In this document: positions 1,715 to 40,597 of the stretch, in pieces
How the letters are laid out: every line of letters starts with the position of its first letter
Numbering within the stretch: the first letter of the stretch is position 1
Assembly (NCBI RefSeq): GCF_030265065.1
Contig: NC_080410.1
Location: 29,762,661 to 29,826,660 of the forward strand
DNA length: 64,000 nt
DNA from: Corythoichthys intestinalis
Taxonomy: Eukaryota
Direction of reading: 5' to 3'
Made by a program: the position numbers and the translations under genes
Notes under the pieces: model-generated
Database searches by the model: none
What the model was told of the DNA's origin: nothing
Seen by the model: the letters and a program-made list of their open reading frames with translations, nothing else

Positions 1715-2615
1715 TAATAGTATTGACAAATCAGATCGGTCATGCACTACGCCTCACCTTAAAGTAGGGGGCCGCCCACATCAAGAGGAGCTATTCACAA
1801 ACACGCACGCAGCGATCTAACGCCGGATTTCTGTTGAAAAAGTACAAAAGCTGTACCACATACAAACAGGAAGGATTGTCTCAGGAGTGATTTGTTCGAG
1901 GATTCAAGGTACTAATTATTATATTTTTCATACCATGCATGCATTTTGAAACGTTGTGGAAAAAAAAAATCAATGGGAGAAATTAGCCGCCACTGCATTG
2001 GCATCATATTTCGCAATATTTACGGAAAATAAATGCTGACTGCACTTTTTTTTTTTTTTGCTTTTACCCAAGAATCGAAACTGTTTTACCTCTATATCTA
2101 TAAAGAATTCAGGGATTTAAGCATTTATTCACAAGAATTTTCACCAGAAAAGCTCTGTTTACATAAGGCGGCCTTTAGCTACATTCAATAACAGACTAGC
2201 ATTGTACTTCGACATGTTTAAGTAAAATAAATGCTAACTGCACATTTTTTTTCTGCTTTTAACCAAGAACTGAGACTGTTTTACGTCCATATCTATAAAG
2301 AAATCAGGGATTTAAGCATTTATTCACAAGAATTTTCAACAGAAAAGCTCCGTTTACATGAGGCGGCTGCTAGCTACATTCACTAACAGACTAGCATTGT
2401 ACTTAGACATATTTACGTAAAATAAATGCTAACTGTACAATTTTTTTGCTTTTAACCAAGAATTGAGACTGTTTTACGTCCTTATCTATAAAGATTTCAG
2501 GGATTTAAGCATTTATTCACAACGAAACGAAAAAAAAAGCTTGTCTGTGATTCCACTCTGTCAGCTTTGAAAGCCTCGCCAACAATGCAGACCCCCTATT
2601 TAGCGGCCCTGCGTC
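1715..2615 (+). repeat. Composite interspersed repeat, copy 1: unique 5' module, then about 3 tandem 170-180-bp units, then a 3' module ending ...caatgcagaccccctatttagcggccctgcg
   Basis: The 5' module (1725..1915) is about 90% identical to 17745..17945. Tandem units start near 2040, 2220 and 2400 (core ...aaataaatgctaactgcac...ttttaaccaagaattgagactgttttacgtccatatctataaagaattcagggatttaagcatttattcacaagaattttcaacagaaaagctc...). The 3' module matches 18520..18600. Confidence 0.7.
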
Positions 2616-3376
2616 ATTTTAAGACACTATGTGGGTGTGCGCTGGTACTCATGGGAAATGCAGTCTTCCTTAAGGCAAAACACTCCCGCTTTTGTCCACA
2701 GGCGTCTAAAATCGACCAAAACCTAAAAGTTACCAAGTGTTTTGCTTAAATGATAAATAGCTGCAGCTCTAAAAACAAAAACTTAATTGAATTGTTGGAA
2801 TAAACTAATGTAATAAATGATAGAAATCTAGATGAACAAAAAACTAAGTCTATAAAAACGTAAATACTGTAGACATAATTAAAAAATGCTGACATAAATT
2901 CTGAAATAAAAAAATAATGAATAAAAATTGGGAAAAAAATGCATAACACTAAAATTATTTTATACGTTCCTGTCAATGTTGAAATAAATTTTAAACAATT
3001 GAAATAAATGCTGGAATAAATAAGTTATAAATGAATTAATAAGAATTTAAATAAATATAAAAATTGCTATACAAAAATCTCAATAAATCACAATTTTAAA
3101 TTTCAAAATTAACTATTTAATTTTGGCAGACCTGGTCCTCCATATTTGGCCTCAGAGGTCACTCACATGTGACATTTTCATTTAGGAATTTTCTCCTAAG
3201 ACCGGCACTGATGGGTTCTTCAGAAAAAACTCAAATACTTTGAATCCAAGTGTTACAGAGCCCCCCCAAACCCCGTAACGACCTCAGCAATGTGGTCGTG
3301 ACCAAGGGAACGCCAGTCTCACTTGACGTCAAACCAACTACATTTGAGTTTGTTGCTTTGGTTCCAATGTGCTGAC

Positions 3377-3476
3377 CTTTGCTCTTCCTCCAGTTCCTCC
3401 TTGCTCATCAGCGTCACCATCTTGTTGGCTTTCTTTCCAGGCGTGAATGTCACTTTTTCATCTTCTCCCGCCGCGC
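3377..3476 (-). CDS. mxra7: mxra7 coding exon 3. Acceptor ttgcag|GC at 3478/3477; candidate donor CAA AG|gtcagc at 3376/3375. Alternatively reads through to the stop at 3319.
   Basis: Phase 1 from exon 2 gives ...G AAGEDEKVTFTPGKKANKMVTLMSKEELEEEQR, matching human MXRA7 ...FSFKYSPGKLRGNQYKKMMTKEELEEEQR. Human continues with further exons (VQKEQLAAIFKLM...) that were not found in 1..3300, so they may lie beyond the window start. Confidence 0.6.
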
Positions 3477-3848
3477 CTGCAACGTAAGCAGGACATATCC
3501 CGGTAAGACATCGTGACACCGCTGTTGATCACGCGGATCTCCTAATAGAATTACAGCCGACTAATTCTTCGGCCTGGCAGGATGAGCTCAAAGGTTTTCT
3601 GGGAACAGAGGAGACGCACACGTGCTGGTAAGCTGCATTCAAGCGGCAGATGGCAGCTCCGCCCACAAACACGCCAACTTCCAAAATGCTCCAATGGAGA
3701 GCCCACACACACATTTCCTTCTGACAATCGCACAATTTTTCTGTAAAAATGTTTAGCAGACTGGCGTGATCCCGCATTAGGGTTGCCAACAGTCCCGGAT
3801 TGCGGCGGACACCCATTGTCCCGCCCAATCAGGGACTGTTGGCAGTTC

Positions 3849-5173
<1,325 letters not shown>

Positions 5174-5203
5174 ATCCACACATGTAAATGTGAGCATTTT
5201 TAC

Positions 5204-6185
5204 CATTTAGCTCCAGTTCCGCTTGCTCGTCCGCTGGCGCCACCACGTCAGCCGCCGGGAGTTTCTCCTGTTCGGATCTTAGCGACAGCACTTGCACAGG
5301 TTCACCCACGGTCCCTGGAAGTTGTTCAGGCACAGCCCTTAGGTCATTGTGAGGTTCTGGTTCTGACTGGACAAGAGGCTGTAGTTCTGAAACTGGTTTT
5401 ATGGACTGCTCTACTTCTGGGACCCCACGTGCCACTGAAGCAGGCATAGAAACTGGTGCGACAGCATCTAGTTTTGGTTCTGAAGAGGGTTCTGCATCCG
5501 GAAGTTGTTCCGGTACCGTTTCAACGGGATATTCAGAATCTTGTTCCAGAGTGTGACAGGATAATATGGCAGATTCGGGTTGGATAACCACTTCTGGTTT
5601 TGGTTTGGAGCACAATTCTGCATCCGGAAGTTGTTCTGGTACAGCGTTGACGGTGGATTTGTAGACTTGTTCCAGAGTACAACATGGTTCTATGGCAGAC
5701 TCTAGTTGAGTAACTGTTCCTGGAAGTGGCTCTGGTGCTAAAGGTGTTTCATGTAAAGATTCTGGCTGAGGGACAGGTTCTGGTGTTGAAAGAGGTTCTA
5801 GCTGAGGTTTAGTTTCTTGAACTGGATCTGGTGCTGAAAGCGTTTCAAGTACAGGTACTGGCTGAGAGACTGTTTCTGATGTTGAAGGTTGGTCAAGCAC
5901 AGGTTCTTGCTCTGGCTCTGATTCGGCGACAGCAGTTTCCTGCCCTGAAGGTGATGCTAAAACTAGCTCAGATTCAGAGCCAAATTCATCTGGCAAAAGC
6001 TCTGAAACTATGGGTTTTGTCTGTGCTTCTATAAGTGGGTCTGGCACTGAAACAGTTTCCTGGAAAGACGCAGATTGTGAGACAGGTTCTGATCTGCAAA
6101 CTGGTTCAACTAAGTTGTCTTCTGACTGGGATTCTTGAACAGGTTCTGAATCCTTTCTGGAAACCGCTTCAGGTTGTGGGCCCGC
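5204..6185 (-). CDS. mxra7: mxra7 coding exon 2: 327-codon Pro/Glu/Val-rich low-complexity exon. Acceptor cctag|GCG at 6187/6186; donor AAT G|gtaaaa at 5203/5202.
   Basis: Open frame of ORF 5127..6047(-) extends upstream to an AG acceptor. Phases match exon 1 (phase 0 in, phase 1 out into exon 3). Contains an internal tandem duplication of about 130 bp (repeated ESAI..C.TLEQ..VPEQLPDAE motif). Human MXRA7 has a short Pro/Glu-rich middle section in the equivalent place. Confidence 0.55.
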
Positions 6186-7154: not shown

Positions 7155-7349
7155 CTGAAGCTCAGCTGCCAAACGTCTGGACGGAGGCTCATCGTCTGCG
7201 CCGGCGTGCGTGACTGAGGCGGCGGTCAACGGGGACCGGACGACCGGGGAGTCGGTCTTTCTATTCCTTCGGCGGAGGAGAACGGCGGCGGCCACCAACA
7301 GGGCTAGCGCGGTGACAGCGACGACGCTCGGCTCCACTTGAAGCTCCAT
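7155..7349 (-). CDS. mxra7: mxra7 coding exon 1 (ATG at 7349 on minus; phase-0 donor CAG|gt at 7155/7154)
   Basis: Translation MELQVEPSVVAVTALALLVAAAVLLRRRNRKTDSPVVRSPLTAASVTHAGADDEPPSRRLAAELQ is a hydrophobic N-terminal TM/signal segment resembling the human MXRA7 N-terminus (MEAPAELLAALPALATALALLLAWLLVRRGAA...). In frame within ORF 7065..7448(-). Confidence 0.6.
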
Positions 7350-7624
7350 GACAGCCGAGCGCACGCACGCATTGACGACGCGCGCAAATTTATACTCCAG
7401 AGTCAAGCTTTGAAACGCCACTCGACAGGCATCCGGCAAACTTTTCAAAATAATGTCGCGTCATAATTTGTTACTTCCGGGAAACCAAAATGAAATAGCA
7501 AAATAAAAATGAAATGTTACCTTAAAAAAGTTGAATTTTAATGTCAAAACTGAAAAAAACGTACACTTAAATGTCAACAAATTCTAGAATGACGTTATTT
7601 AACATTACACTTTTGATTTTAGCA

Positions 7625-9101: not shown

Positions 9102-9412
9102 CTGTGGCGAGGGGGCAACAAAATACGTCAGCAGCAGCCAAAAGCTAGCGATAGGGCTGCTACAAACTATTATTTTGGATAGTTGATTAATCACTGTTTT
9201 GTGATTTGTCAACTCGTATATGAATCATGCTATTTAATGTTATATTACTCTGGGCAAAACATTTTAGCTGGAAATGTGTATTGTAATCAAAAACCATGCG
9301 CTAAGAAAAATCTATTATTTACTATCATCATCTATTATTGTCAGTGGTACTGAAAGAGTTTTATCGTGGCAGCCCAAGTGAGCAAGGATGCGCCAGCGTC
9401 CGCATCACTTAC

Positions 9413-9548
9413 ATCGGAGTCTGAGTCGGAGGAGCTGGAGGATGACGAGGACGAGTCGCTGGAACTGTCGGACGCGATTCCCGTAGACTCCTGCAGGTCC
9501 ACTCGGTCCGCCAGCGCCGCCAGATCGGGTCGCTCCTGCTTTAAAATC
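9413..9548 (-). CDS. jmjd6: jmjd6 coding exon 5
   Basis: (R)[45 protein letters not shown], compared with human [46 protein letters not shown]. Acceptor ttttag| at 9550/9549; donor GAT|gtaagt at 9412/9411. Confidence 0.9.
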
Positions 9549-9606
9549 CTAAAACACATAGACATGTTTAAAATCTTGTTGCTGTGACGATGGCATGCGC
9601 TTCTTA

Positions 9607-9795
<189 letters not shown>

Positions 9796-9818
9796 TCATC
9801 ATCTTCAGCATGACATTA

Positions 9819-10136
<318 letters not shown>

Positions 10137-10183
10137 TCACGAACGGTACGGCACCCCGCATGATCTAAAGGTGGGTCACTGAC

Positions 10184-10572
10184 CTGTATGGCGGCCGACG
10201 CTTCTCTCCGGCGAACTGAAAGAGGTCATCAGTGAAAAAGACTGGCACTTCGTAGTCTTGCAGTAGTTTTCGACGTTTGGCGTGCTCGCCGTAGCTGCTG
10301 TCAAAGATGTAAAGCGGGCTATCGTCGCGGGTGCCCTCTAGGTACTCCACGTAGTATTTCATCTTCATCTTGACGGAGTAGCCGTCGTTGTCCTCTCCGC
10401 ATTTGAACTTCTGGTTGCGGTACTTGCGTTTCAAACGCTCCAGGGTCCATTTTTGCTGCGCGGGCCACGACTCCTGACAGCGGAGGAGAACCACGGGCTT
10501 GTAGGGCCTCTCGAAGCGCTCGATGAACTCTTCAGGGCTCAGACGTACCGCGTCCACGCGTTCCACATTGTC
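10184..10572 (-). CDS. jmjd6: jmjd6 coding exon 2
   Basis: [129 protein letters not shown](R) matches human JMJD6 residues ~45-185. Acceptor cacag| at 10574/10573; donor TAC AG|gtcagt at 10183/10182. Confidence 0.92.
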
Positions 10573-11388
10573 CTGTGGCGAAAAAAAGCACCTTTTCAAT
10601 TTCTTCCCCTTGGGAACTATCTTACAGACACGTCTGCTTTATGCATAGCAAATTGCTGTTCCACATTTGAATGAACTGGTTATGATTGGGCAATGGTTCA
10701 CTGGCAAGAGTGACCATGTTATGTACGATACAAAATCCAGATCACCAGCTGACTTTTTCTATTTCCGCCAAAATTTAGATTCCCATCAATTCACGCAAAG
10801 AAATCCTTGTCAAACTTGTTGATGACGTGGATTGTAAAACCAAGTAACAGTATTCAGAAAAGTTAAATTCAGTTGACATAGGTTTAGATCAATTTTGGTG
10901 TTCAAAATCTCGCATAGATCTTCAGAATGAGCTATTATTCTTGTTCTTGGTGAAATTTGATGTGATCAGTTTCCTGTCGCGTGATCAGCAATAAGATGAA
11001 TGAGCGGACGCACTCATTGAATAAGATGGAAATGGCCCATTTCATGCTTTTTTTTTTTTTTTTTTACCTAAAAACTAATTTCCTGATGACTAACTCATTC
11101 AATGACAGCAATCGGCGTCTAAATTCAGATGTACTGTTACGGCACGAAAGCAAAATTGATTTGGACGTCCATCGCTGTCATTGGCATTGAAATGTACTCA
11201 TTCAGAAACATGATCATTTAATACCAGCTCTCCAATTTTTTTGGTAACATATTCTGTAGTGTTGTAATTGAGTAAATGTTCGTTTAGATTACGTCGTCAC
11301 ATTGAGAATATTCTCGAAAGAGCGTCGATCGACGTGATACGTTAGCCACAGCTACCTAGCATTAGCTTATCCTAACGTGCCACATTAC

Positions 11389-11517
11389 CTTGACAGAGCT
11401 GTGCGACACGTTAAATGTATCGTGATAAGCGTGTTTTATCCAGTCTAGCGAGTCCTTCAACTCTGGCCTGGCACTGCGTTTGGCCTCTTTAATCCTCTTC
11501 TTGCTCTTGTGGTTCAT
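11389..11517 (-). CDS. jmjd6: jmjd6 coding exon 1 (ATG at 11517 on minus)
   Basis: The reverse-complement translates to [43 protein letters not shown], followed by gtaatg. Human JMJD6 begins [37 protein letters not shown]. The six exons sum to 1209 nt, 402 aa plus stop. Confidence 0.9.
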
Positions 11518-12002
11518 TCCTTCCGTTTCGTTCCCGTCGATACTTAAGCTAACCAGGGGCTAACGCTTTGTGTACTCATTCGCTTCTCAGCCGCATCGAA
11601 AGACAGCCGACCAAATATTTCCCTGATTAAGACGTCGAAACATGTCAAACACAATTCCGTAACAACTCTAAAGATGATTCTTATGACACTGAGGAGTACG
11701 TTTCACGTGTCTGCATGGCGTGTTGAGAAGCTTGATCTGTTAGCCGGCGACTCAGGTACACAAAACGCTTTCGCAAGTGCTTGTCACAGCGGGTCATGCC
11801 CCTAAAGCGATTATCGAATGCTCATTGGCCAGTACGTATAATAGCCCCGCCCATAAGAAACATACGCGGTCCTGATTGGCGGTTAGGTTTCCTTCCTCGA
11901 AAAGCGGAAGTGAAACGTATTGACGGGTTCAAAAATGTTTCTTTGACAACACTGCCGAAAAGTAAATGGTTTATTGAAAATGCTTTCGTATATTGAGAGG
12001 AT
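11518..12002. promoter_or_regulatory. Bidirectional TATA-less promoter shared by jmjd6 (-) and mettl23 (+)
   Basis: The two start codons are 485 bp apart and head-to-head. Inverted CCAAT boxes are at 11824..11828 and 11874..11879 (cattgg, gattgg). A GC box gccccgccc is at 11844..11852 and an ETS/GABP-like gcggaagtga at 11904..11913. The same head-to-head JMJD6/METTL23 arrangement exists in human. Confidence 0.6.
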
Positions 12003-12107: not shown

Positions 12108-13254
12108 GTAAGGTTCACGGTGATCATGTCGAAGCCATAACACAAGGCATTGGACCTCCAATTCCAACTAGCTGTCAGGGGAACCCAAAGACTTCTGATC
12201 ATTTTTACATTCGTTGCGTAAATATTAGAAGGCCCACATTGTCAACTTTTTTCGCGTTTTTCACATCTGATTTTAAAACTCAACATTTAACGTTGCAATT
12301 TGCCCATTAGCGGTTCTTGTTGTATACATCCCAAGAGGGTTGTGTTTGAACAAAATCGTTTTTTTTTTTTTTTTGGTCATATTTTGTTTAAACTGACAGT
12401 TTTGTAATTGATTATTATCCATGGCTTCCATTGACAGCAACAGATGCCCAATCCATTTGAACCATGTTGGGCAGCCCAATGACTGTCGATAGCAACCAAT
12501 CAGTTTTAATTTGGAAAAAATAACCCTGGCTTATTCTTCTAATTTATGATTAATAAGTATTTGAAAAGTGACTCCGTGCGTGGGAAACTACCCATTCAAA
12601 GAGTGTAGGGACAGATGGCATGACTGAATAGTGTCACTCAATTTTGCTGTACATCTCTTGGATTTTACTCTTAACTTGCACTTTACAAAACAGGTTTATA
12701 TTTTACTTTATCCATAGGCTTCATAATATATTGACATGACACGGGGCGCAGGGCCGATCCATAGGGGGCCAACTTTAAAAAACTTCGAATATTTTCAAAA
12801 CCAAAGATGCTACCAACCTAAATCCAAATCAGGCACCTACCTTAGCGATATATGAGTCTCCTAGAGCAGCGGCATCAAAAAATTCTAAGTCGTTCCCTTA
12901 TAAAATCCAGATTATTTTTTATATAAGTATAACATAACTTAAAATGCTATAACATTCTCAGATTTTACACAAGATACACACAAATCATCAAATACAGAGA
13001 TAATCACCTATATTTTCATAATCAATAGCAATATTTAACATATCAAATAAGTTTTTTCCCAAAATAGCAACTTAATTTTTTTTCAACAGCTAATAAATCA
13101 CTCATTTTTCAAATCAAAAACTTAATACTTGAGGAAAACATGCAGAATCAATTATAAATCATTTATAAATAGATTATTAATTAATTCTATACGCAATCAC
13201 AACTTATTATAGAATAGAATAGCCCTTTATTGTCATTATACGGTTATATAGTTA

Positions 13255-13800
13255 GTTATATAGTTGCAGTGAATGAGGCTAGCTGCCGCCTGACATAAAC
13301 AGCTTTTCTGGCGAAAATTATTGTGAATAAATGCTTCGATCCCCAAATTCTTGATAGATACGGACGTAAAACAGCCTCGATTCTTAGTTAAAAGCAAAAA
13401 AACGTGCAGTTCGCATTTATTTTACGTAAATATGTCGAAGTACAATGCTAGCCTGTTAGTGAATGCAGCTAGCAGCCGCCTTATGTAAACAGAGCTATTC
13501 TGGCAAAAATTCTTGTGAATAAATGCTTAAATCCCTGAATTCTTCATAGATATGGATGTAAAACAGTCTCGATTCTTGGTTAAAAGCAAAAAAAAATGTG
13601 CAAATAGCGTTTATTTTACGTAAATATGGCGAACTATGATGCCAATGCAGTAGCGGCTGATTTCTCCCATTGATTTTTTTCACAACGTTTAAAAATGCAT
13701 GCATGGTACGAAAAATATAACAGTTACCTTGAATCCTCGAACGAATCACTCCTGAGACAATCCTTCCTGTTTGTATGCGGTACAGCTTTCGTATTTCTTC
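13255..13800 (-). repeat. Composite interspersed repeat, copy 2 (reverse orientation; 2 tandem units plus 5' module), in mettl23 intron 1
   Basis: Reverse complement of units and 5' module of copy 1 (for example 13700..13800 is the reverse complement of about 1800..1915). Confidence 0.65.
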
Positions 13801-14141
13801 AAAAATCCAAGCTTGAATCCGGCTTGGACATGAGCGGTTGCTGTCTTCAAATGACTATTACTAAATGAAGCTCAGCCCCCAGTGGTAAGGTGTGACGCAA
13901 AGAATGATGAAGTGTCAGGTCAACAGAGTTTTGAAGTCTATGATCTTATTTGGTTGCTTACGTTTTAAGAAATCTAACAACTGGCTAATGTCTGCTTATT
14001 TTCTGTGTAACACTCACGTTCATCAATCCGTGGAAGTATTCGACTAAAAAAACGGAAAATAGGAATGTTCTGAGGACGTGTCACATAAAATGCGAATGTC
14101 GATGTGAGTGATGAAGTGCTGCTTGTCCTGCTTGTTTTCAG

Positions 14142-17271: not shown

Positions 17272-17739
17272 GAGCTCACATACTTTTCCTCGCCAGTTTG
17301 GCGTTCATCTGCGGAGCTTCGTTGAACTCTTGAGAAGCAAGCCAAATCCAAAAAGGACGACCAGTTCATGAACACTCAGGACTGTGGTTTCTTTATCTCA
17401 CCCATTTTAAAGGACAGATTGATGGATGGAAATGTCAATAAAGGAAGACATTCACTCTGTGACACCTGATGTTTCTCTGATTTGTCTTCAGTGGCTCATG
17501 AGATGGAATTAAAATTCGTAAAAAGCCAGTGGTTGTGTTGTTTTTTGGAGCTAGGAACAGTATCAAGGCGGTCTGAGAAAGCACAATTTTCCTCAGTTGA
17601 ATATATTATAGATTTATACAATATTTAACCCTTTACAAATCACTTATTTAACTCATTGGCTGCTATTGACAGTTATAAATCTCAAATCAATTTCGATTAC
17701 ATAAAAATGGGAGCTAATGTTCGCTGATTGCAAAGGTAC

Positions 17740-18600
17740 CAACATAGACTTCATAATGGTATTGACGGGTCAGATTGGTCATGCACTGCGCCTCGCATTC
17801 AAGTAGGGGGCCGCCCACATCTAGAGGAGCTATTTACAAACACGCACGCAGCGATCTACCGCTGGATTTCTGCAAAAAAGCACAAAAGCTGTACCGCATA
17901 CAAACGGGAAGAATTGCCTCAGGAGTGATTTGTTCAAGGATTCAAGGTAATTATTATATTTTTCGTACCATGCATCCATTTTGAAACATTGTGAAAAAAA
18001 TCAATGGGAGAAATTGGCCGCTACTGCATTGGCATCATAGTTCGCAACATTTACGTAAAATAAATGCTGACTGCACGTTTTTTCTGCTTTTAACCAAAAA
18101 TCGAGACTTTTACTTCCATACATACATAGGGCGGCCGCTAGCTACATTCACTAACAGACTAGCATTGTACTTCGACATATGCACGTAAAATTAATGCTAA
18201 CTGCATGATTTTTTTTTATGGGGGGGGGGGTTTATAACCAAGAATTGGGACTGTTTTACGTCCATATATATAAATAATTTGGGGATTTAAGCATTTATTC
18301 ACAAGAATTTTCAACGGAAAAAGCTCTGTTTACATATGGCGGGCGCTAATTTCCTTACTGACTAGCCTCATATGTTGCAATATTTACGTGAAATAAATGC
18401 TACCTGCACGTTTTTTTTTTTTTACGTTTTAACAAAGAATCGAGACTGTTTTACATCCATATCTTTAAAGAATTCAGGGATTTAAGCATTTAATTACACA
18501 CATTTTCAGCGGAAAAAGCTCTTTGTCTGTGATTCCACTCGTTCAGCTTTAACGGTCTCGCCAACAATGCAGGCCCCCTATTTATCGGCTCCGCGCCCTG
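17740..18600 (+). repeat. Composite interspersed repeat, copy 3 (full architecture), in the mettl23-casc3 intergenic region
   Basis: Collinear with copy 1 from the 5' module through tandem units (17990..18500, with a G11 run at 18225) to the 3' module gcaggcccccctatttatcggctccgcgccctg. Confidence 0.7.
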
Positions 18601-21065
18601 TTTCCCGTCAATACATTATGAGGTCTATGGTACCAAATACGACGGAAACGGATGTAAAATTTTACCTCGAAGAAAGTGAGAAAAAAAATATCCAAAATAT
18701 ACTTTATCATTATGAAGGCATTTAGCAAAATTTTGCTAATCCTAAATGACTTAAAACAGGAGAGGTTTAGCCTGATTTAAAGCAAGACTTGGTAAGTTTT
18801 CAGTTATGGTCGATTTTAGCGACACCGGTGGACAAAAGCGGTAGTGTTTTTCCTTATGGAATACTGCGTTTCCCATGATGACCAGCGCACACCTGCTGTG
18901 TCGTAAAATTATCAATCAATCAAAAATCAATCTCTTTCGCCTGCAGATGGATTAACCCTTTAACACCGAACGTGTCTCAGCGATGCGTTTACGCATATCA
19001 TCTTTGAAGCTTCATCACGCTGTAATTACATCACCCACGTGCTGCTGGTTGGTCTCGTTTGAAAGTGCAGAAGTTGATGTCCACACCAGTTTTTATTTGA
19101 AGTCAATCGGCCAAGAAAAACGGGAGATAATGTCATTTGAGTTTTATATGGTAAATGGTAAATGGTGTTATACTTATATAGCATTGCACTCATAAATATG
19201 CATTAAAACGCTGCATGGACCATGTATCCATCTCCATATTTCCATCATTTCTTGTCCTTTTTCAAAAGCGAAAGCAGCACAAAAGACTACTTATCCCAAG
19301 AGTCGTTGTGATGTCAGGAAGGACGAACCGAATGTGATCATTTTTAATAAATTTCCGAGCGAGGCGCCAACTATTGAAAGGGAGGCATGCGAAGCAAGCA
19401 GCGGCCGGTGTCGTGCCGAAAAATGCACAACACCGGTTGGTTTGAGCGAGCGACTTTGAAACGTGCAGAATGAATCTAAAACTACATTTAGCACAAGCTA
19501 ATGCATTATTTCATTAACTCAAGGAAGAAGATGAGTCATATTTGTCGTTGTTTTCCTCTGATGAATCGGCGTCTCTGCGAGTAGAAGTGACAGTAGAGCG
19601 CAAACGGCGAAAGAGTAGGCTGTGTGACGTGTGTGACGCAGCTCCATGACCTGTTCAAGAAGCTTTATTGAGTGCGCAAAAAAAAAAAAAAAACTTTATT
19701 GGGTCGCATGCCTGAAAAATTTGAATTGAACTACTTGTCAATATTTTTTAAAATACTTTTTTTTCAATGTTATATATTTTTTTCTTCACTATAATCTTTT
19801 CGATTTTTATGTAGGTGTGTGCGAGAAGCTTGATTGCATGTACGTATATACTTTTGATAAGGTGATGGGTACAACACCTAACTTCACAAAGAGATATCTT
19901 CCTAACCCTTTTTGTGTTAGATGATATATATAAATTTTTTTCTCACTATTTTGCACACTATATAGACTGTTTTGACCATAGTATGTGTAAAGGCCAAAAA
20001 CGCCTTTGACCATACCTGCTGTTTGTGTTGAATTGTCAAACATACAACTATTCAATCTTATTTTTTCTATTGAATGTTTATCCTAACAAGTTGAATAAAT
20101 ATTATCAAGCTTCAAAACGGTTGGTCTAGCATGTTTGGTTGTCAATGGGACACCAACATTACAAATTTTGAAAAAAGATTTTGGGATTTTTTTGTCTTTT
20201 TGGGTCCAAAATGTGGATTATAATTGGTCAGTGAAGAAAACAACAGTTTAGACATGAAGTTCAAGGTGTCCTGAAAAAAGGGACCCAATTTGGCCATTGT
20301 AAACAATTTTTTCTTTGAAATATAAAGGCAACATCAAATGCATGCAAATTCGGCCAAAATAGGCTTAGGTGTTAAAGGGTTGAACAAAATTTCTCTATCC
20401 AGTGGCTGTGTGAAGGGTGAATAGTCATAATGTAATTAATCCAGTCGTGGCTAACCGTGTGGCTAGCCTACCCCAGCAGAACTCATCAGTGCTTACGCTT
20501 ACGCCAGTATGTGAATGGTTATTCGTGTTGTATGTTTATTTGTTATATCCTGGTAGCCTCCCTATTTTTTCATCGTCAGACAAAACTTTTTGTCTCATTT
20601 GTTCCTCTGCCATCCATGCAGAATTCCCAAAGCGTTCGCATCGACTTCCGTCTTTCTAATGAATGGGGAAAGGGGGAAGTTACGTATGCTGTAAAGCAGT
20701 CAGCACATTTGTATTTTTAGTTTTTGTATGGCAGGGTTCCTGCCACCATCCTCAAAGTTAATTAGTGCCGATGAGAGCGATACAGACCCCTTCAAGGTAT
20801 AAAAGAGGTGTCATTCAACTAGTTTTCAGTCAACATATTATCACAAATGTTATGAAAATATTTTATAAAGGTTCAAAACGTTACCTAGTTTTGCTTTAAC
20901 AGAAGACGGTGAGAAAATGTGTTTTGTGTGTTTTTGAACAGTCTTCTTTCTATTATCAAAATTGATCAATTACGCTATAAAGGGTTAATTTAATGCAAAG
21001 GTCCTCAAATCCAAGGTCAAGTTAGGGTATTTTATGTATCTTTCCAGTTAGAGGCGCTCTTGAGC

Positions 21066-27650: not shown

Positions 27651-28804
27651 GTAAGACTTGCACATTATTCAAAATGGGATCATTTGATGACGGAGTGCCA
27701 AAATTTTCTATTATATTGAAATACAGTATATAAAAGCATTCTTAAATCTATACAAAAATTTGGCACTCCTGGTCCTTAAAGGAACCTGTGTTTTAAATTA
27801 CCTGTTAACTCTTTAATCCTTAAAGTGCCTGTGACACGAAAAAGCATGTTTATTTCATAATACACGCGGTATTTTATGCTCCTGAATGATATGGACCGCT
27901 TGGATGTGTGTGGAAGCGATCGCTATATTTATTTAGTTTTTTGAATCCCGCGCCAGGAAAATGAGTGACTTCCGGCTTCGGTCTTGCACTGAGGAGGAGG
28001 GCGCTGTGACGTGTACGGTAGAAGACGTCCTCTTCACGCTACAGTGTACTGTTGTGTATGAGGACGAAAGATTCAGCGGATTTTGCGGATTAATACGTTT
28101 ATTTTTCGCATCACGCCAGCCAAACGGCTGCGGAAAAATCATTCTGTATGAGGGAGAGGCGTATGCGCCTTTTTGGAGTTTCAAAAGGTTCCCATTCACC
28201 GTGGATATTTACTGTGGGACCATTGGACTTACGATGAAGTGAGGAAACATCTTGTTTTGTATTATGTCAAATACGAATACAGCGATTACAAAGTAAACAC
28301 TACAAACTTCCTTTAAATGAAGGACTACTTACGTTTGATCATTGATAGGCATGTAAAAAGCTCTCCTAATGCATTAGCAGCAGCACGTTAGCTGCGTTAG
28401 CTCCAGCCACCCTCCTCCGGGGAACGAACTGTAAATTGAACTCCGCCGGGTGGTTTGCCGATCCGCTAAGACATTCGACAACCGGGTCGTCATGTCAAAT
28501 AATCCAGGATAGCTATGTGTGATTTTCCGCTTTGAAGACTTTGAAACATCACTCTGTTCGGGTTAGCATGTCGGCTAGCTGTCACGCCTTCTGGTTTGTT
28601 TACATTCTCCGAAGCCGGGGAAGGGAAATGACATATGTCCGATTTAGGTGTCATAAAATATTGTTCGGGAGGTGCGACAGTAAAGGTGAAGTCGACAGTT
28701 TTGACCATTATGGAGTAATTTTGCCATGTCGTCCTGAATAAATGCATTTTTATTATTTCATATTCCATTCAGCACAAGACTGTTATTTGTCATGACGATG
28801 CCAT

Positions 28805-30700
28805 TTATTTAGCAATTGGGGAAAATAATAATAATAATAATAACAATACATTTTATTTATAGCGCGCTTTTACCGGTGCTCAAAGGCGCTTTACAGTTGA
28901 GGAAGAAAATAAATAAAGCTCACACAATGTGGGCAGTAGACAATAGAGAAAGAATTACAAATTAAAAGCTAGTTTAAAAAGATGAGTTTTTAACAATTTT
29001 TTGAATGTGGAAATATTAGAACAGGTGCGGATGGTTTTAGGGAGTGCATTCCAAAGTGAGGGGGCAGCAACGGAGAAGGCTCTGTCCCCCCAAGTACGGT
29101 GTGTTATTTGTGGGGGCAGTGCGAAAATGTTTCCATTAGATGAGCGGAGGTGACGGGAGGGGGTGTGGGGACAGAGAAGGGCCGTGAGGTAAGGAGGAGC
29201 CAAGTTATTGAGTGCTTTGTATGTCAGAAGGATGATTTTGAAATGTATCCTGTGTGAGATGGGAAGCCAGTGCAGTTTGTGAAGGACGGGGGTAATGTGA
29301 TTCCTGTAGGGGGTACGGGTGAGAAGGCGTGCAGCGGAGTTCTGGATATATTGTAGTTTTTTGAGGAGTTTGGCTGGAGATCCAAAAAGAATGCTGTTAC
29401 AATAATCGAGTCTGGAGGTGACGAATGCATGTATGAGGGTTTCTGCAGCAGAGTAGGTGAGGGAGGGGCGGAGACGGGCTATGTTCTTGAGGTGGAAGAA
29501 GGTAGTTCTGGTTATGTGGTTGATGTGCTGGTCGAATCTTAGTTTATTGTCGAAAATGATACCTAGGTTGCGGGAGTGTGTTGAGAGAGGGAGGGTGCAG
29601 TTGTCGATGGTGAGGGTGAATTGACTGTTATTTATGTGAGCTGTAGGGTCTATGATGATTATGTCCGATTTGTTGCTGTTAAGTTGAAGATAGTTAAGTT
29701 GCATCCAGGATTTGATTTCGCTGAGGCATTTGTGAAGTGTAGATTTGGTGCTGTGTGAGATGGTTTTAGTGGAGATGTATATTTGTATGTCATCGGCGTA
29801 GCAGTGGAATTGCAGTCCAAATTTTCGGATGATCTGACCAAGGGGGAGGATGTAAAGAATGAAGAGGAGGGGGCCAAGAACTGAACCTTGGGGGACACCT
29901 TGTGCTATGGAAATAGCAGGGGACGTGCAGTTGTTAATGCTGATGAATTGTTGTCGGCCGGTGAGGTAGGAGTGGAACCAGGAAAGTGCAGTGCCAGTGA
30001 TGTGTAGAGACTCTAGTCGGGAGAGCAGAATGGTGTGGTTGATTGTGTCAAAAGCAGCAGTGAGGTCCAGGAGGATGAGGATGGTGAGTTGTCCGGAGTC
30101 CGCGGAGAGTAGGATGTCGTTGGTTACTTTGAGAAGTGCTGTTTCTGTGCTGTGTTGTGAGCGGAAGCCAGATTGGAGAAGTTCAAATAGCTTATTGTCG
30201 GTAAGGTGGGTTCGGAGTTGTGACGCAACTGCCCTTTCCAGAATTTTTGATAGAAAAGGCAGATTTGAAATGGGTCGGTAGTTGGTCGGGATATCGGGGT
30301 CTAGACCAGTTTTCTTTATGATCGGCGTGATGGCAGCCAGTTTGAGAAGTTGGGGGACAGAGCCAGAGCGGCGGGAGGTGTTAATGATATCAGTGATAAG
30401 TGAGGAGATGACGAGGAGACAGTCTTTTATTAGAGCAGAGGGAATGGGATCTAGGGTGCAGGTGGCAGTTTTCATTCCAGACATAATGGTTTCAAGTTGA
30501 GTGGATGTTATTGGAGAAAGCTCAGTGAGTTCCTGGATAGTTGTGGGCGTAGAGGCAGATGGCGGGGAAGGGGAAGGTGGAGCAGTAAACTGGATCCTGG
30601 AGGTGTTTAGGTTACTGTAAATGTTGTCTATTTTTGTTTGGAAAGATGAGAGAAATAATAAACACTTTTCAGGAGTGAATGAAGTAGAATACTTCAAATA
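28805..30700 (-). mobile_element. L2/CR1-like non-LTR retrotransposon (LINE), 5'-truncated, in casc3 intron 7, antisense to casc3
   Basis: ORF 28955..30697(-) of 580 aa has reverse-transcriptase motifs (LLDLTAAFDTI, FHCYADDIQIYIS, SRNLGIIFDN). The 3' end on minus is a short microsatellite (rc of aataataataataataataacaat at 28825..28850), typical of L2-clade tails. Confidence 0.8.
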
Positions 30701-30990
30701 CTTGGATAAAAAGAGTATCCTGTAAAAATATTGAAGTAAAGAGACAGAAACAATGACATTTTGCCGCTCTCTTCGTCGCGTTTTCCTCGTTGTGAATAGT
30801 TCCCCCTCAACGGGCTGACTGGTCCTTCTGAAGCCATTTATATAGCTATTGGGGAAAAATACTTGGGTAAAAAGAATATCCTGTAAAAATATTGGAGTAG
30901 AGAGACTGAAACAATGACATTTTGCGGCTTTCTTCGTCGCGTTTTCCTCGTTCTGAATAATTTCCCCTCAATGGGCTGAATAGTAAAATC
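30700..30990. repeat. Tandem duplication, 2 x 140 bp, immediately flanking the 5'-truncation point of the L2-like LINE
   Basis: tacttggataaaaagagtatcctgtaaaaatattgaagtaaagagacagaaacaatgacattttgccgctctcttcgtcgcgttttcctcgttgtgaatagttccccctcaacgggctga is repeated at about 30860 with a few substitutions. Confidence 0.75.
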
Positions 30991-31816
30991 GATGAGCCAA
31001 GTCTACCGCTGACGTCATCCACCTGTTGGGGACGCTAAAGCCCTATAATGGTAGGCGTGGCTAACCGGCAGATTAAAAGACTAATTTCTTGTCATCTGTG
31101 CTTTGCTAAATTGTTGTATATAGTCGAATCGTCTCAAAATATGTTTCTAATTCAAATAATAATGACATTTTAGACTTTTTTTCTCGTGTCATGCTCTTTA
31201 AAGTTCCCTGTTTTTGTAAAAGGACCCTAATAACAACAGCACATTCAGAGCCACCAGTTTATTGCCGCATTCCTGACAGAGGAGTTAAACAGTATGCTGG
31301 GTCAGAGAGCTACTCTTGTCCTGACCCTACACAAGCTCGGTGTAGACTGACCAAGACTATCTGATTTACAAGCCATATTATAAAAGTTAGAAAACTGAGG
31401 ATATGCTTCTTGTGATTGGTTGAATGCCCATGAAATTCCTAGCCATTATTGCCAGATAGGGGAGAATGTTGTTCTAGACATCTGCTGTCTGCTTGGCCCG
31501 ATTGCTGGACATCCTTGCGCTGTCCTCAGGCCTTTGCTCTCCTCTTCTCGGGGCTCCCCAAAGCGAATGTCCTCGTTATGGCATGTTTTCTTTTGCGGCC
31601 TTTTCGCTCTTCTGGTATTCATCACGGGTCCGAATTGATATGTTATTGAAAGGGCCCCACTGCTTAAACAGCATCAACTTTCTTGTAGCAAATACATTTT
31701 AGTGTTTGATTCTTCTTAATGTAAAGTAATAAAATGGTTATTAAATGATATTTCCATCATTATGGACGGCCCATTTTTGCAAAGCAGCTCACCTACAAGT
31801 TAACTGTTCTCCTTAG

Positions 31817-31993
31817 GCCTGAGTGGCGGCTTGCACGTTGCCAGCGCTCCTCCGCCGTCCTTCTCCGGCTTGGATGAGATGTCGAGCGGCGCCAACCGTG
31901 CCAAGCGCTACTCGTCCCAGCGGCAAAGAGGAGTGGCCGAGGCGGCTCCACCCCTGCACGTGGGCGTCATGGAGGGACACTTCTATGAGCCCA
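31817..31993 (+). CDS. casc3: casc3 coding exon 8
   Basis: (G)LSGGLHVASAPPPSFSGLDEMSSGANRAKRYSSQRQRGVAEAAPPLHVGVMEGHFYEP, compared with human MGVQGGRAKRYSSQRQRPVPEPPAPPVHISIMEGHYYDP. Acceptor ctccttag|. The donor CCC A|gttagg at 31994 is weak but phase-consistent. Confidence 0.8.
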
Positions 31994-32075
31994 GTTAGGA
32001 TTGCTCTTTTTTTTTTTTTTTCCTTCTTTTGTCGGCTTTTGACATGTGGCTGATGAATGTTTGGGCCTTTGCCAG

Positions 32076-34511: not shown

Positions 34512-34512
<1 letters not shown>

Positions 34513-34544: not shown

Positions 34545-34545
<1 letters not shown>

Positions 34546-36262: not shown

Positions 36263-36329
36263 GTCAACTATTTCAGTGCTATTCACGACAACAGAGCTCT
36301 AATCATGTGGCTTTCCATTTGTTGATTCA

Positions 36330-36420
36330 GACTTTAAATCACACTTTGACATGGTCATCGGAGGAAATCGAACCCAGAACCTCTGGGTTGAAGAACGAAT
36401 ACCATACTCCACCATGGCAC
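36330..36420 (-). ncRNA. tRNA-related sequence (SINE head or tRNA pseudogene), not a functional tRNA
   Basis: The minus strand reads ...tggtggagtatggtattcgttcttcaacccagaggttctgggttcgatttcctccgatgacca. It has box A-like (TGGTGGAGTATGG) and box B-like (GGTTCGATTTCC) motifs, but the acceptor stem does not pair. Confidence 0.25.
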
Positions 36421-37576
36421 CCTACAAGTGCCATAGATGATGAGAGATGTTCAATAATGTGCTCTTTTCATCCATTTGCCGTTAATTTTAATTGGTTGAT
36501 CGCTTGTAGACATCCAATCATTTAAACTGGGAGATTGGCAGTAGGGCTTAACGATATTGGGAAAAAAACTTGCATTGTGACATTTTATGAGTTTGTGATA
36601 CATTGGGATATATATTGCAATATTAAAACTAGAAAAATATTCACCAGATAACTTGAATAGTTCTGGGAAGACCGTATTCCGTTTAATTTAAGCTAATGTT
36701 GTACATCTGCGAATTATGAAGATTGCTGTATATAAAAGGGATCTAGGGGGCATGTCTCTGCACACTTGCTTCGTTTATGAAACAAAACAAGCGTTTAGGT
36801 GTTCAAAAAATAATAATAAAAAAAAAAACCGTCACATCCCACATGCTGCGATGTGACTATTGCAAGGGCGCACATCGCGATGGTGATGTTCAAACTTTAT
36901 TTTGTGGAGGTACTACACATTTGAGTGCAATAGCTTTTTGTTAGTAAACCATTGTTTGATGTCGAATGCTCGGTTTTGTCAGGTTGCTGCGAGGTGCTCG
37001 GGTCTTGACGCGCGGGCGACGTCCATCTGGAGGAGCATGTCACGTGACCCTCTGCCGGATTCCCCCTCGGGTCGCGGTGACAGCGCTACTTTCCGCCTGT
37101 TCGGTCACATGACCGCGGCCGCCAGATGGCAGAGTTCACCCTACTCGGCCCGCCCATGTTCAGGGCAAAAAAAAAGTTGAGAGAATATAGTTTGAAGGTT
37201 CCCGTCCGATCCCGAGAGGTAGGATGGAAAAGGTCCACTTTTGTTCTTTGTTTTTTGCTTGTTGGTCAAAGAAAAGTTGAGAAACTTATAGTCGGAGATG
37301 TTGCTACTGTAATTCTGCATTGTTTTTTTTTCCTTATTTCATTTCTAGAATATTTTTCTATGTTTGCTGTATTTTCTGCTCTTCAAGCAGTTACATGTGA
37401 CCCCAATAAACACTTTTCAACTGTTCTTCCTTCTCATTTCATGCGAATCGCAACAGAAAATACATCAAAAGCTACTATTTCCAGGAAGTCGGCAAAGTAG
37501 CTGTAAGACATTTTTAAATGCCAGTACAGTACTATTTTTACCAATCAAACGCATTAATTTCAGATATGCATATATA

Positions 37577-38013
37577 TATGGGGTGTCAAACGATTACAAT
37601 TTTTAATTGAGTTAATTACAGCTTAAAAATTAATCGTAATCGCAATTCAAACCATCTATAAAATATTTTTCTTTAAATTATTGTTGGAAGTAATAGAAAT
37701 TTTATATTAAAACCCCTCTTCATGTTTTCGTTTTAATAAAATTTGTAAAATTTTCAATCAAAAAATTAACTAGTAGCCCGCCATTGTTGTCAATTACACA
37801 GTGCTCATGGGTGCTGAAGCCTATAAAATCAGGCGCACCCAAGCGCCAGCAGAGGGCGGCAAAACTCCGAAAAACACAACAAGTACACCTTTCACTGTGC
37901 TGTCATTTTAATCTGTTTGAGCGGGGCATTTGTGCGTTAATTGCGTCAGATATTTTAACGGGATTAATTACCGCTCGTTAACTAGATAATTTTGACAGCC
38001 CTAATATATATAT
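37577..38013 (+). mobile_element. MITE family 1 (TIR CAGGGCTGTCAAACGATTA...), copy 1, about 440 bp
   Basis: Ends gggtgtcaaacgattacaatttttaattgagttaattacagcttaaaaattaat... and ...taattaccgctcgttaactagataattttgacagccc are inverted repeats. No coding capacity. Confidence 0.7.
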
Positions 38014-38532
38014 GACGTCTTGGAGAAACAACCAGGCTTTGCTCAACTCATTTACATGGTCATATATACAGTACTAGCTTAGCAAAAATGCTTTTTATTC
38101 ACCTATAATACCATGTTTGGAGGTAGTCAGGTCTTATTTTAGTGCTAAACGAGGCGTTCAACTAGCACAATGTCAGAGCAGCCACATCCAAGATGGCCTA
38201 TACCTGACGTATACCTTTTATGAAATGACGTCAAGTTCAAGAAGCATTCGGAAAAGTTTTATCCCGCAGATCAACAATTAGCTAATCGATCGATAGAAAA
38301 ACTGAACTTTGCTCAACACACAGTCAACATGAAATACTCTGAAACACTGAGGACACAGCTTCTTGTAAGTGATATGTTTTTTTTTTTGTTTTTTTTTTGA
38401 GTGACGTTTCAGCAACACTATGACAAGTGAACATTTTGGACACATCTAACTTACAAAGCATTGTTCTACTTTTGACCAATACTGCCACAATTATTTTTAA
38501 AACTAATTGGTCAACTAATCAGATGATATAAA

Positions 38533-39783
38533 GTGCTGGCCAAATATATTGGCACCCCTGCAATTCTGTCAGATAATGCTCAATTTCTCCCAGAAAATGT
38601 TAGCAATTACAAAAAGTGCCATCAATCAAAAACCAAAGAATGAAAAAAAAAATCATGATCAGTTTTACACAAAACTCAAAAAATGGGCCTGGCACCCTTT
38701 TTTTGGCACCCTTTGAAAAATCGTGATGCCTCCCTAATTTGTTTAATTACCAACACTGGTGGCATTAACTAAATCACACTTGCAGTCAGTTAAAATGGAT
38801 TAAAGTTGACTCAACCCGTGTCCTTGTGTGTACCACATTGAGAATGGAGAAAAGCAAGAAGACCAAAGAACTGTCAGAGGACTTAAGCAAAACTGAGGAA
38901 GCATGGGCATTCTCAAGGCTACAAGTTCATCTCCAAAGACCTCAATGTTCCTGTGTCTACCGTGGGCAGTGTCATCAATAAGTGTAAAGCCCATGGCACT
39001 GTGGCTAACCTCCCTAGATGTGAACGGAAAAGAAAAATTGAGAGATTTCAACGAAAGATCGTGCGGATGGTGGATAAAGAACCTCAACCTACATCCAAAC
39101 AAGTTGCGTAGGTTCCCTGATGTTTTGGGGTTGCTTTGCTACCTCTGGCACTGAACTGCTTGACCATGTGCATGGCATTATGAAGTCTGAAGACTACCAA
39201 CCAATTTTGCAGCATAATGTAGGGCCCAGTGTGAGAAAGCTGGGTCTTCCCCAGAGGTCATGGGTATTCATTCCAGCAGGACAATGACCCAAAACACACT
39301 TCAAAAAGCACAACAAATGGTTTGAGAGAAAGCACTGGAGACTTCTAAAGTGGCCAGCAATGAGTCCAGAGCTGAATCTCATAGAACACCTGTGGAGAGA
39401 TCTGAAAAGGCACCCTTCAAATCTGAGACCTGGAGCAGTTGGCCAAAGAAGAATGGTCTAAAATTCCCGCAGAGCATTTTCAGAAACCCACTGTTGGATA
39501 CCGGAAGCGGTTGTTCGAAGTTATTTTGTCTAAAGGTTGTGCTACCAAGTATTAGGCTGAGGGTGCCAATGCTTTTGTCTCGCCCATTTTTGGGGTTTTG
39601 TGTAAAATGATAATGATTTAATTTTTTAAAAAAATTTTAAATTTTAAATTTTGTGTTTTATCATTGCAAGCAAAATAAATGAAGACATTACTACCAAAGC
39701 ATATGTAATTGCAATAATTTTCTGGGAGAAATTGAGCATTATCTGACAGAACTGCAGAGGTGCCGATACTTTTGGCCAGCACT
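38533..39783 (+). mobile_element. Tc1/mariner family A, second internally deleted copy
   Basis: Same TIRs as 3849..5173 (ctggccaaatatattggcacccctgcaattctgtcagataatgctcaatttctcc ... gcagaggtgccgatacttttggccagcact). Transposase fragments at 38903..39154 and 39350..39610. Confidence 0.85.
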
Positions 39784-40194
39784 ATAAATCATGTTACTTG
39801 ATATTATGTGTCTGGGCTTAACATTTTAGCTGTAAAAATGCTTTGAAACCAAATGTTAGATGCAGAGAAATACAGTTGTACCTCAACATACGAATTTAGT
39901 TTCGGGACGTGGTTTATCTATTGAAATAGTATGTCAAGACTGATAAGAATAATTCGTTGAACAGCCCAAAAAACAAATTCTTAATAAATAATGCAGGTAC
40001 AATTGCACGTAGCTAAAAAAAATAAATTATAAATAGGGAATTAAAAAAGCGTTTTTATTGTCACTGTAACTTGTTGCTGACAGTGACAGCGGGTGTGGAG
40101 GTAGCTGTTACGATGAGCCGTGTTCCAATTCCAGTTCTCACTCGTACATCACGCATGTGTTCGATGATTTCTCATAGATTTCATCACGTATTGA

Positions 40195-40597
40195 CTGGAA
40201 ACGGGGCCGATAAATAGGGGGCCTGCATTGTTGGCGAGGCCGTCAAAGCTGACCAAATGGAATCACAGACGAAGAGCTTTTTTTTGTTGAAAATTCTTTT
40301 GAATAAATGCTTAAATCCTTGAATTCTAGATATGGAGGTGAAAGTCTTGATTCTTGGTTAAAAGCACACACACACACACAAAAAAGTTGCAGGTAGCATT
40401 TATTTTACGTGAATATGTCGAAGTACAATGCTAGCCTGTTAGTCAATATAGCTAGCGGCTGCCTTATGTAAACAGAGCTTTTCCAGTGAAAATTCTTGTG
40501 AAAAAATGCTTAAAGCCCCGAATTCTTCATAGATATGGACGTAAAACAGTCTCGATTCTTGGTTAAAAATAAAAAACGTATAGTTAGTACAGTGTAT
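40195..40597 (-). repeat. Composite interspersed repeat, copy 4 (reverse; 3' module plus 2 units), truncated by the Tc1 family D mini-copy at 40598
   Basis: ccgataaatagggggcctgcattgttggcgaggccgtcaaagctgaccaaatggaatcacagac is the reverse complement of the 3' module. It is followed by two reversed tandem units and a short (CA)8 run. Confidence 0.65.

Follow-up and report, generated by a model that had tools for sequence, protein, structure and literature searches.

A probable non-autonomous TIR transposon family with an internal tandem duplication in a fish-like genome

Four related repeats in the window, the whole 64-kb stretch of DNA analysed, are very probably old, damaged copies of a single family of non-autonomous class II DNA transposons (elements with terminal inverted repeats, or TIRs, that move by cut and paste) in a ray-finned-fish-like genome. 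The ancestral element was, in all likelihood, about 0.9 kb long and non-coding. Its kind is ordinary and well known: a TIR transposon with an internal tandem duplication. At the superfamily level, the probable 7-8-bp target duplication makes P and hAT the candidates. Because copies 1 and 3 measure about 890-910 bp, which exceeds the strict MITE criterion used here (length below about 600-800 bp, together with high copy number), "non-autonomous element" is a better label than MITE.

Copies of the element and their structure

The four copies are dispersed in both orientations and have unrelated flanks. With copy 3 as the query, BLAST within the window returns E-values of 1e-133 to 1e-93, self-comparison of the window recovers the same four copies, and all four can be aligned, with a divergence of 8-22% between alignable modules. 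Their common order runs from the 5' module through the tandem units to the 3' module. An earlier sequence-only reading of this DNA had proposed four copies, both orientations and one module order, all of which is borne out. The extents that it gave were too narrow and are corrected as follows.

1704..2613, plus strand: copy 1; 5' end intact (CGTAGACTTCATAATAGTATTGAC), 3' TIR deleted with the rest of the last ~34 bp
12713..13942, minus strand: copy 2; both termini kept, 5' end at 13942 and 3' end at 12713
~12771..13267, minus strand: unrelated AT-rich DNA of ~500 bp inside copy 2; no second copy in the window
17743..18629, plus strand: copy 3, 887 bp; no other copy is structurally complete
40173..40587, minus strand: copy 4; 3' end intact (CATAGATTTCATCACGTATTGAC inward from 40173)

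Copy 3 comprises the 5' TIR, the 5' module, units A, B and a partial C, the 3' module and the 3' TIR; its unit A carries a 62-bp deletion. The tandem region of copy 1 (2001-2522) holds full units A and B and a partial C. Copy 2 represents a variant subfamily, and its first ~130 bp are just 53-55% identical to copies 1 and 3. Its unit A is complete and its unit B is broken at ~13268, beyond which the AT-rich DNA has taken the place of the rest of that unit, of unit C and of the initial half of the 3' module. Both this DNA and the 3' terminus beyond it (12713-12770) had been left out of the earlier extent of copy 2. The 3' module, previously thought to end in ...ggccctgcg, runs ~34 bp further in copies 2, 3 and 4, to ...GTCAATACATTATGAGGTCTATG.

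Copy 4 begins inside unit B and keeps most of that unit, the partial unit C and the 3' module. Where its 5' part should follow, a Tc1-like terminus begins instead, at 40588 (TACAGTG). The proposal that a Tc1 insertion cut this copy is right about the position, since the break falls exactly at that terminus. However, what is there of the Tc1 element is a fragment that has undergone rearrangement, and copy 4 does not resume with its 5' half on the far side, so simple insertion alone does not account for the truncation.

BLAST at word size 7 finds no module or unit apart from the four copies. Within the 64-kb window, modules and units are thus not independent of each other, as the sequence-only reading had required of a single element.

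Termini and target-site duplication

The ends of the element provide the main evidence for its mode of movement. They are best seen in copy 3, whose terminal features are listed below.

17736..17742, no strand: left target-site duplication, GTACCAA, read from the sequence
17743..17769, plus strand: 5' TIR, CATAGACTTCATAATGGTATTGACGGG; pattern match and DNA fold
17801..17812, plus strand: subterminal motif, AAGTAGGGGGCC, inverted relative to GGCCCCCTATTT
18572..18583, plus strand: subterminal partner motif, GGCCCCCTATTT
18604..18629, plus strand: 3' TIR, CCCGTCAATACATTATGAGGTCTATG; 25 of 27 aligned positions agree with the 5' arm
18630..18636, no strand: right target-site duplication, GTACCAA, read from the sequence

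The 27-nt TIR can be recognised at each of the six termini that the window contains and at no other place in it; no chance match of the full pattern is expected in the window. In copy 3, the arms at 17743-17758 and 18614-18629 are 94% complementary, the extended pairing covers 25 of 27 aligned positions, and the DNA fold pairs the two ends. The element therefore has a terminal inverted repeat of 26/27 nt, where none had been obvious before, and its ends read CATAGAC...GTCTATG. Some 50-60 nt inward of each end lies an inverted TAGGGGGCC motif, found as (A/G)TAGGGGGCC at 6 of 6 termini in the window. The ends also differ in pairs: copy 2 has TGACAC after TTGAC at both ends, whereas copy 3 has GGG there at both ends, which indicates that TIR arms co-vary by subfamily.

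Copy 3 is flanked by a perfect GTACCAA duplication, whose chance probability at a fixed position is ~6e-5. A symmetrical reading of the two ends gives 7 bp, and moving one end a base inward gives 8 bp (GGTACCAA); the length comes from this one copy, in which 7 bp and 8 bp are inseparable. The flanks of copy 2 (…AATAAGAT / GATAAAGT…) show no duplication, though it is the sole other copy with both ends.

Relation to repeat W

Copy 1 is nested in a MITE-like repeat, W1 (1306-2749). A second copy of this repeat, W2, lacks the element at the matching point. As an empty paralogous site it is imperfect: W2 has a different insertion ~12 bp away, and W1 is deleted at the 3' junction. Repeat X (2616-2741, matching 18784-18909) seemed non-randomly tied to the element and is instead the 3' arm of W, which is a separate MITE-like family. 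Two of the four copies sit in or adjoin copies of W.

This association, together with the placement of all four copies within 39 kb, would fit a non-mobile origin, in which one ancestral block underwent local segmental duplication and inversion, leaving the four repeats as remnants whose inverted termini are incidental. Such an origin is very unlikely. In every copy the similarity stops exactly at the inverted termini, W1 and W2 bear TIRs of their own with the element in W1 only, and a perfect duplication flanks copy 3.

Class and superfamily

The sequence-only reading had described a non-autonomous mobile element with its own tandem array, perhaps a Helitron- or SINE-like carrier. Its dispersed and non-coding nature stands; the two carriers do not. 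Spread by rolling-circle transposition or retroposition has nothing in its favour except the lack of an ORF, and is hardly credible for an element with CATAG...CTATG ends, a 26/27-nt TIR and a 7-bp duplication. Helitron hallmarks had been proposed for inspection at the termini, where neither a 5' TC nor a 3' CTRR hairpin is present, and the insertion is not between A and T. A SINE is rejected as well: the element has no tRNA, 7SL, 5S or pol III-like head and no A-rich or simple-repeat tail.

Among TIR transposons, Tc1/mariner, piggyBac and PIF/Harbinger are rejected since no TA, TTAA or TWA duplication is seen; the flanks of copy 3 read GTACCAA|CATAG and CTATG|GTACCAA. The hAT superfamily, judged by an 8-bp duplication and by TIRs that typically begin with YARNG (CAG.. 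or TAG..), does not fit the element. The TIR here begins with CATAG, with T rather than R as its third base, and the duplication is 8 bp only with the offset. The P superfamily was judged by a 7-8-bp duplication, a TIR starting with CAT(G/A) and subterminal inverted repeats. The element has compatible features, namely a 7-8-bp duplication in one copy, a TIR start of CATA and subterminal inverted repeats, and the TIR sequence shared with P is CATA only. Dada elements have 6-7-bp duplications and no TIRs and insert into snRNA or tRNA genes (PMC3706591); they are ruled out by the TIRs and by flanks with no Rfam or tRNA match.

Internal tandem array

TRF and the spacing of unit starts (198, 195, 194 and 203 bp) put the period of the internal repeat at about 195 bp rather than the 170-180 bp given before. 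TRF reports 2.6 copies at 88% in 2016-2522 and 1.9 copies in 13268-13633. The ancestral layout is a 5' module of ~310 bp, a ~195-bp unit repeated ~2.7 times and a 3' module of ~110 bp. The array is central in the element and not part of the TIRs.

Because all internal junctions (5' module-A, A-B, B-C and C-3' module) are common to the copies, an array of ~2.7 units was probably already present in the ancestral element. Variants shared between units comprise 7 of position type, 3 of copy type and 17 mixed, about what chance would produce (27%, 18% and 55%), and so give no independent sign of an ancestral array.

A different account of the array is that the element is a proto-satellite carrier, in which the 195-bp unit actively expands and contracts and either seeded or derives from long satellite arrays elsewhere. 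The unit is AT-rich and satellite-like in length, and satellites are documented to arise from repeats borne by transposable elements (PMC12628747, PMC3879986, PMC4079207); proto-satellite-like behaviour is known for Xenopus miDNA4/Xstir and bivalve pearl/DTC84 (PMC12628747, PMC3879986). This account is nevertheless unlikely. Unit number had been thought to vary from two to four, yet A, B and a partial C (~2.7 units) make up the array of copy 1 and of copy 3 alike, every scorable copy fits this array and none has four units or any other larger number. The long head-to-tail arrays of a satellite are absent from the 64-kb window, where the maximum is 2.6-2.7 units, always within the element; nor does the window hold free units or near-complete copies with variable repeat number. 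Differences in unit number are the result of truncation or deletion, not of array dynamics, and are explained by the 62-bp deletion in copy 3, the replacement in copy 2 and the truncation of copy 4.

Coding capacity and outside searches

The longest stop-free frames of the copies are at most 72 aa, except one of 119 aa, and none has a Pfam match at E<=1. The element has no transposase coding capacity, in agreement with the earlier statement that it contains no ORF. No autonomous partner or transposase is seen in the window, and no THAP9/P-type transposase ORF occurs in its 64 kb. Rfam and ARAGORN find no RNA or tRNA match in the element.

Searches outside the window returned no relatives. The most conserved 22-mer of the unit has no exact match in the metagenome, viral and prokaryotic genome contigs scanned, and a 30-mer from the 5' module has no match in the metagenome contigs scanned. 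A chimeric protein query built from the long stop-free frames of the four copies, designed to pick up further copies through ORFs wrongly annotated on them in public assemblies, gave 5709 word candidates, none significant. Six sequence strings of the element were not found in a full-text paper search. The family may already be catalogued in Repbase or Dfam.

The window also contains a JMJD6-like exon, whose best protein matches are fish-like (88-91% identical, against 79-83% for tetrapods). The element is absent from the contigs encoding two of these fish-like matches, which have only exons in common with the window, at 74-83% nucleotide identity.

Proposed history of the family

The family may have arisen and decayed in a few steps. 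A transposase encoded elsewhere would have bound the TIR and the subterminal motifs, and the element would have been excised and then reinserted via a 7-8-bp staggered cut, a length that would suit a P- or hAT-like enzyme. Slippage or unequal exchange in a master copy probably produced the tandem duplication, once only, and later copies presumably carried it passively. The differences among the present copies would reflect decay through divergence, deletions, nested insertions and truncations. The element is expected to have no cellular function of its own.

The value of the family lies mainly in annotation, as a well-bounded transposable element with defined termini, a probable target-site duplication and a described internal structure helps repeat masking of the genome. 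It also adds one more vertebrate TIR element with an internal tandem duplication. There is a slim chance that the element is a mobile carrier of a 195-bp repeat grown into a true satellite elsewhere, or a P-like (THAP9-related) non-autonomous family. Either would be of modest interest if true, whether through a unit that is a satellite elsewhere in the genome or through a tie to a P-like transposase; P-like non-autonomous families are poorly documented outside zebrafish.

Comparison with known systems

Zebrafish Pdre2 and its internally deleted derivatives resemble the present element in a TIR starting with CATA and in separate subterminal inverted repeats (PMC10983969). Both have non-autonomous copies, and the Pdre2 duplication is 8 bp, compared with 7, possibly 8, here (PMC10983969). 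However, the Pdre2 TIR is 13 bp long (CATACCTGTCAAC), with its first four bases alone matching, and its subterminal repeats are TGTTTAAACCAA rather than TAGGGGGCC (PMC10983969). On this comparison, the resemblance would be a lead, not evidence of P membership. hAT-derived non-autonomous elements and MITEs, which are abundant in fish genomes, likewise have short TIRs, subterminal motifs and a ~8-bp duplication. They differ from the present element, whose TIR begins with CATAG and whose duplication comes to 7 bp on a symmetrical reading of the ends.

Internal tandem repeats have been described in TIR elements before, including those of vertebrates (PMC3879986; PMC12628747). Tetris, a foldback element of Drosophila virilis, is also a DNA transposon, with internal tandem repeats related to a satellite (PMC4079207). 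In Tetris the long foldback-type inverted arms contain the repeats, and the existence of a derived satellite has been shown (PMC4079207), whereas the array described here is central and has no known satellite counterpart. The tandem-repeat-containing MITEs, represented by DTC84 of Donax trunculus and oyster pearl (PMC3879986) and by Xenopus miDNA4/Xstir (reviewed in PMC12628747), resemble the present element in structure but have no sequence similarity to it. In DTC84 and pearl the putative duplication is AA (2 bp), one end of the array carries a microsatellite, the number of repeats varies up to five and the diagnostic variants are ordered (PMC3879986); miDNA4 derives from Tc1/mariner and has a TA duplication (PMC12628747). 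In contrast, the present element has a 7-8-bp duplication and a 27-nt TIR, without a microsatellite or demonstrated variation in repeat number. Despite these differences, DTC84, pearl, miDNA4 and Xstir are non-coding like the present element, and all share its design: arms that bear inverted repeats and enclose, like a cassette, a short tandem array of satellite-length units in the centre, in copies dispersed through the genome.

Copies and extents of the repeat

Four copies of one non-coding repeat of about 0.9 kb (the element) lie in the window, as the sequence-only reading had proposed.

1704-2613, + strand: copy 1
12713-13942, - strand: copy 2
17743-18629, + strand: copy 3, the sole structurally complete copy
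40173-40587, - strand: copy 4

When copy 3 was used as the BLAST query, copy 1 was recovered at E = 1e-133, copy 2 at 1e-89, and copy 4 at 1e-93. Self-comparison of the window returned the same four copies, and a four-way alignment displays the anticipated common order of 5' module, tandem units, and 3' module. Modules and unit have no match beyond the four copies (word size 7, 64-kb window), and within the window they always occur together. No further copies were found in the searched collections, which include neither the species nor close relatives. The extents of the copies required revision: the true 3' end of the element lies 34 bp further out than initially placed, and copy 2 is far larger than initially read, its 3' terminus (12713-12770) being parted from its units by ~500 bp of unrelated AT-rich DNA.

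Termini and probable target-site duplication

The best-supported identity of the element is a non-autonomous class II transposon of ~0.9 kb with terminal inverted repeats (TIRs). Although no obvious TIR had been noted, such repeats are present at the copy ends. In copy 3, the arm CATAGACTTCATAATGGTATTGACGGG (17743-17769) stands opposite CCCGTCAATACATTATGAGGTCTATG (18604-18629), with 25 of 27 aligned positions matching, and both ends pair in a single-strand DNA fold. Across the window the terminus pattern has exactly six occurrences, each at the end of a copy.

1704, + strand: end of copy 1
12713, + strand: end of copy 2
13942, - strand: end of copy 2
17743, + strand: end of copy 3
18629, - strand: end of copy 3
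40173, + strand: end of copy 4

An inverted subterminal motif, (A/G)TAGGGGGCC, is found 50-60 nt from each of the six ends. After TTGAC, both ends of copy 2 read TGACAC, whereas both ends of copy 3 read GGG. The two arms thus vary together by subfamily, as would be expected of a functional transposase-binding end.

A perfect GTACCAA borders copy 3 on either side (17736-17742 and 18630-18636), extending to the 8-bp GGTACCAA when one of the ends is shifted inward by a base. Only copies 2 and 3 retain both ends, and the duplication length comes from a single case, copy 3. The flanks of copy 2 (…AATAAGAT and GATAAAGT…) carry no recognizable duplication, which is unsurprising given its divergence. 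A transposase acting in trans would recognize the 27-nt TIR, with the subterminal motif a probable second recognition site, and would cut the target with a 7-8-bp stagger. The copies encode no evident protein, in keeping with the initial reading: stop-free frames reach at most 72 aa, except one of 119 aa, and none of the copies' frames matches Pfam at E<=1.

Internal tandem array

Unit starts were placed in every copy before the units were aligned. Their spacing (198, 195, 194, and 203 bp) and TRF (2016-2522, 2.6 copies, 88%; 13268-13633, 1.9 copies) correct the period from 170-180 bp to ~195 bp. Copies 1 and 3 alike contain unit A, unit B, and a partial unit C that passes in phase into the 3' module; the last ~20 bp of the 5' module are also homologous to the unit, for a total of ~2.7 units. 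The differences in unit number reported between copies reflect damage rather than array dynamics. Copy 3 has lost 62 bp from its unit A, copy 2 is interrupted within unit B, and copy 4 starts within unit B, at a Tc1-like terminus. Comparable junctions (5' module-A, A-B, B-C, and C-3' module) occupy the same position across copies in the four-way alignment. Consequently, the ancestral element already possessed the array, which travelled with it as it spread. Substitutions common to units sort 7 by position, 3 by copy, and 17 mixed, a split that matches random expectation and is uninformative. The simplest origin for the tandem duplication would be slippage or unequal exchange, occurring once in a master copy.

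Divergence and damage of the copies

Between copies 1 and 3, identity is 87-92% over the 5' part and 78-83% over the units and 3' module. Copy 2 matches these two at only 53-55% over its first ~130 bp (13810-13942, - strand), compared with 82-93% for the remainder. It probably represents a subfamily of its own; its divergent 5' end, together with its own TIR bases (TGACAC), points to either a distinct subfamily or a recombinant.

Copy 4 ends at the exact start of the Tc1-like terminus TACAGTG (40588). The Tc1 piece is no more than a fragment and has itself been rearranged, and the lost half of copy 4 does not lie beyond it. The later Tc1 insertion proposed previously does not, by itself, account for the truncation. 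Tc1-like debris occurs at 40588-41011, 45378-45404, and 52500-53306, and the 27-nt terminus TACAGTGTATCACAAAAGTGAGTACAC is present on the + strand at both 40588 and 45378. After ~38 bp, the 40588 terminus is joined to the 3'-most third of another Tc1-like family, which recurs at 52928-53306 (91%); this similarity extends ~20 bp beyond the Tc1 end (aagctaacattgctacgttcc). A 161-aa ORF with three or four C2H2 zinc fingers (41101-41586, - strand; zf-H2C2_2 E=7e-23) directly adjoins the Tc1-like fragment.

Copy 1 is nested in one of two copies of a second, MITE-like repeat, W.

1306-2749, + strand: W1, host of copy 1
18777-20899, - strand: W2, second W copy

All four W termini read TTAAAGCAARACTWGGTAAC(T)TTT, and the 126-bp repeat at 2616-2741, matching 18784-18909, is the 3' arm of W. 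At the matching point, W2 lacks the element and thus provides an imperfect paralogous empty site for copy 1: W2 bears a different insertion ~12 bp away, and a deletion in W1 has removed the element's last 34 bp with 60-70 bp of W. The end of copy 3 lies 147 bp from W2. The ~1.4-kb insert within W2 (~18953-20383), bounded by inverted CAACCCTTTAACACC and GGTGTTAAAGGGTT, is probably another TIR element. A similar string, TAACCCTTTAC, lies just upstream of copy 3 (~17627).

Other features of the window

The sequence is vertebrate, and a ray-finned fish is its most likely source. JMJD6-like exons (~9410-11529, - strand) have best protein matches of 88-91% identity, on fish-like contigs. Identity is 87-90% over ~70% of the query for named UniRef fish entries (Xiphophorus, Gadus) and 79-83% for tetrapods. 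Contigs carrying two of the best matches have exons alone in common with the window, the nucleotide identity there being 74-83%. Copy 2 sits upstream of this gene, ~1.2 kb past its most 5' conserved exon.

Besides Tc1-like debris, the window contains LINE reverse-transcriptase ORFs. One of these (28955-30697, - strand; RVT_1 E=2.6e-38) falls within 28001-32000, where GC skew is strongly positive (+0.32, then +0.16). At 55999-56689, a 336-bp unit present in 2.1 copies (92% identity, TRF score 1153) forms a further short tandem duplication, possibly TE-borne. Of the repeat pairs in the window, the youngest is the inverted pair 44109-44756 / 62295-62953, at 97.7% identity over 659 bp; older related fragments lie at 37567-38012.

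Comparison with known elements

Two carriers suggested for the repeat are not borne out. Against a SINE-like carrier, the whole window gave no Rfam hit at gathering thresholds, copy 3 gave none at E<=1, and no tRNA-like sequences were found. As for a Helitron-like carrier, the termini lack the 5' TC, the 3' CTRR with hairpin, and insertion between A and T. Tc1/mariner, piggyBac, and Harbinger are ruled out by the lack of a TA, TTAA, or TWA duplication. hAT TIRs usually start YARNG, whereas the element's TIR starts CATAG. Dada elements, which lack TIRs and target small-RNA genes (PMC3706591), are ruled out because the element has TIRs. Zebrafish Pdre2, a P-like element, resembles it in a CATA... 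TIR start, separate subterminal inverted repeats, and a flanking duplication of comparable length, 8 bp in Pdre2 (PMC10983969). However, the TIR match to Pdre2 is four bases only and therefore fixes no superfamily.

Short internal tandem arrays occur in the TIR elements DTC84 and pearl of bivalves (PMC3879986), miDNA4 and Xstir of Xenopus (reviewed in PMC12628747), and Tetris of Drosophila virilis (PMC4079207). The element shares their general architecture but differs in target duplication and TIR, and, within the window, displays neither variable array length nor a derived satellite. Repbase or Dfam may already list it. TIR elements with internal tandem arrays are well documented, and the element is at most one more.
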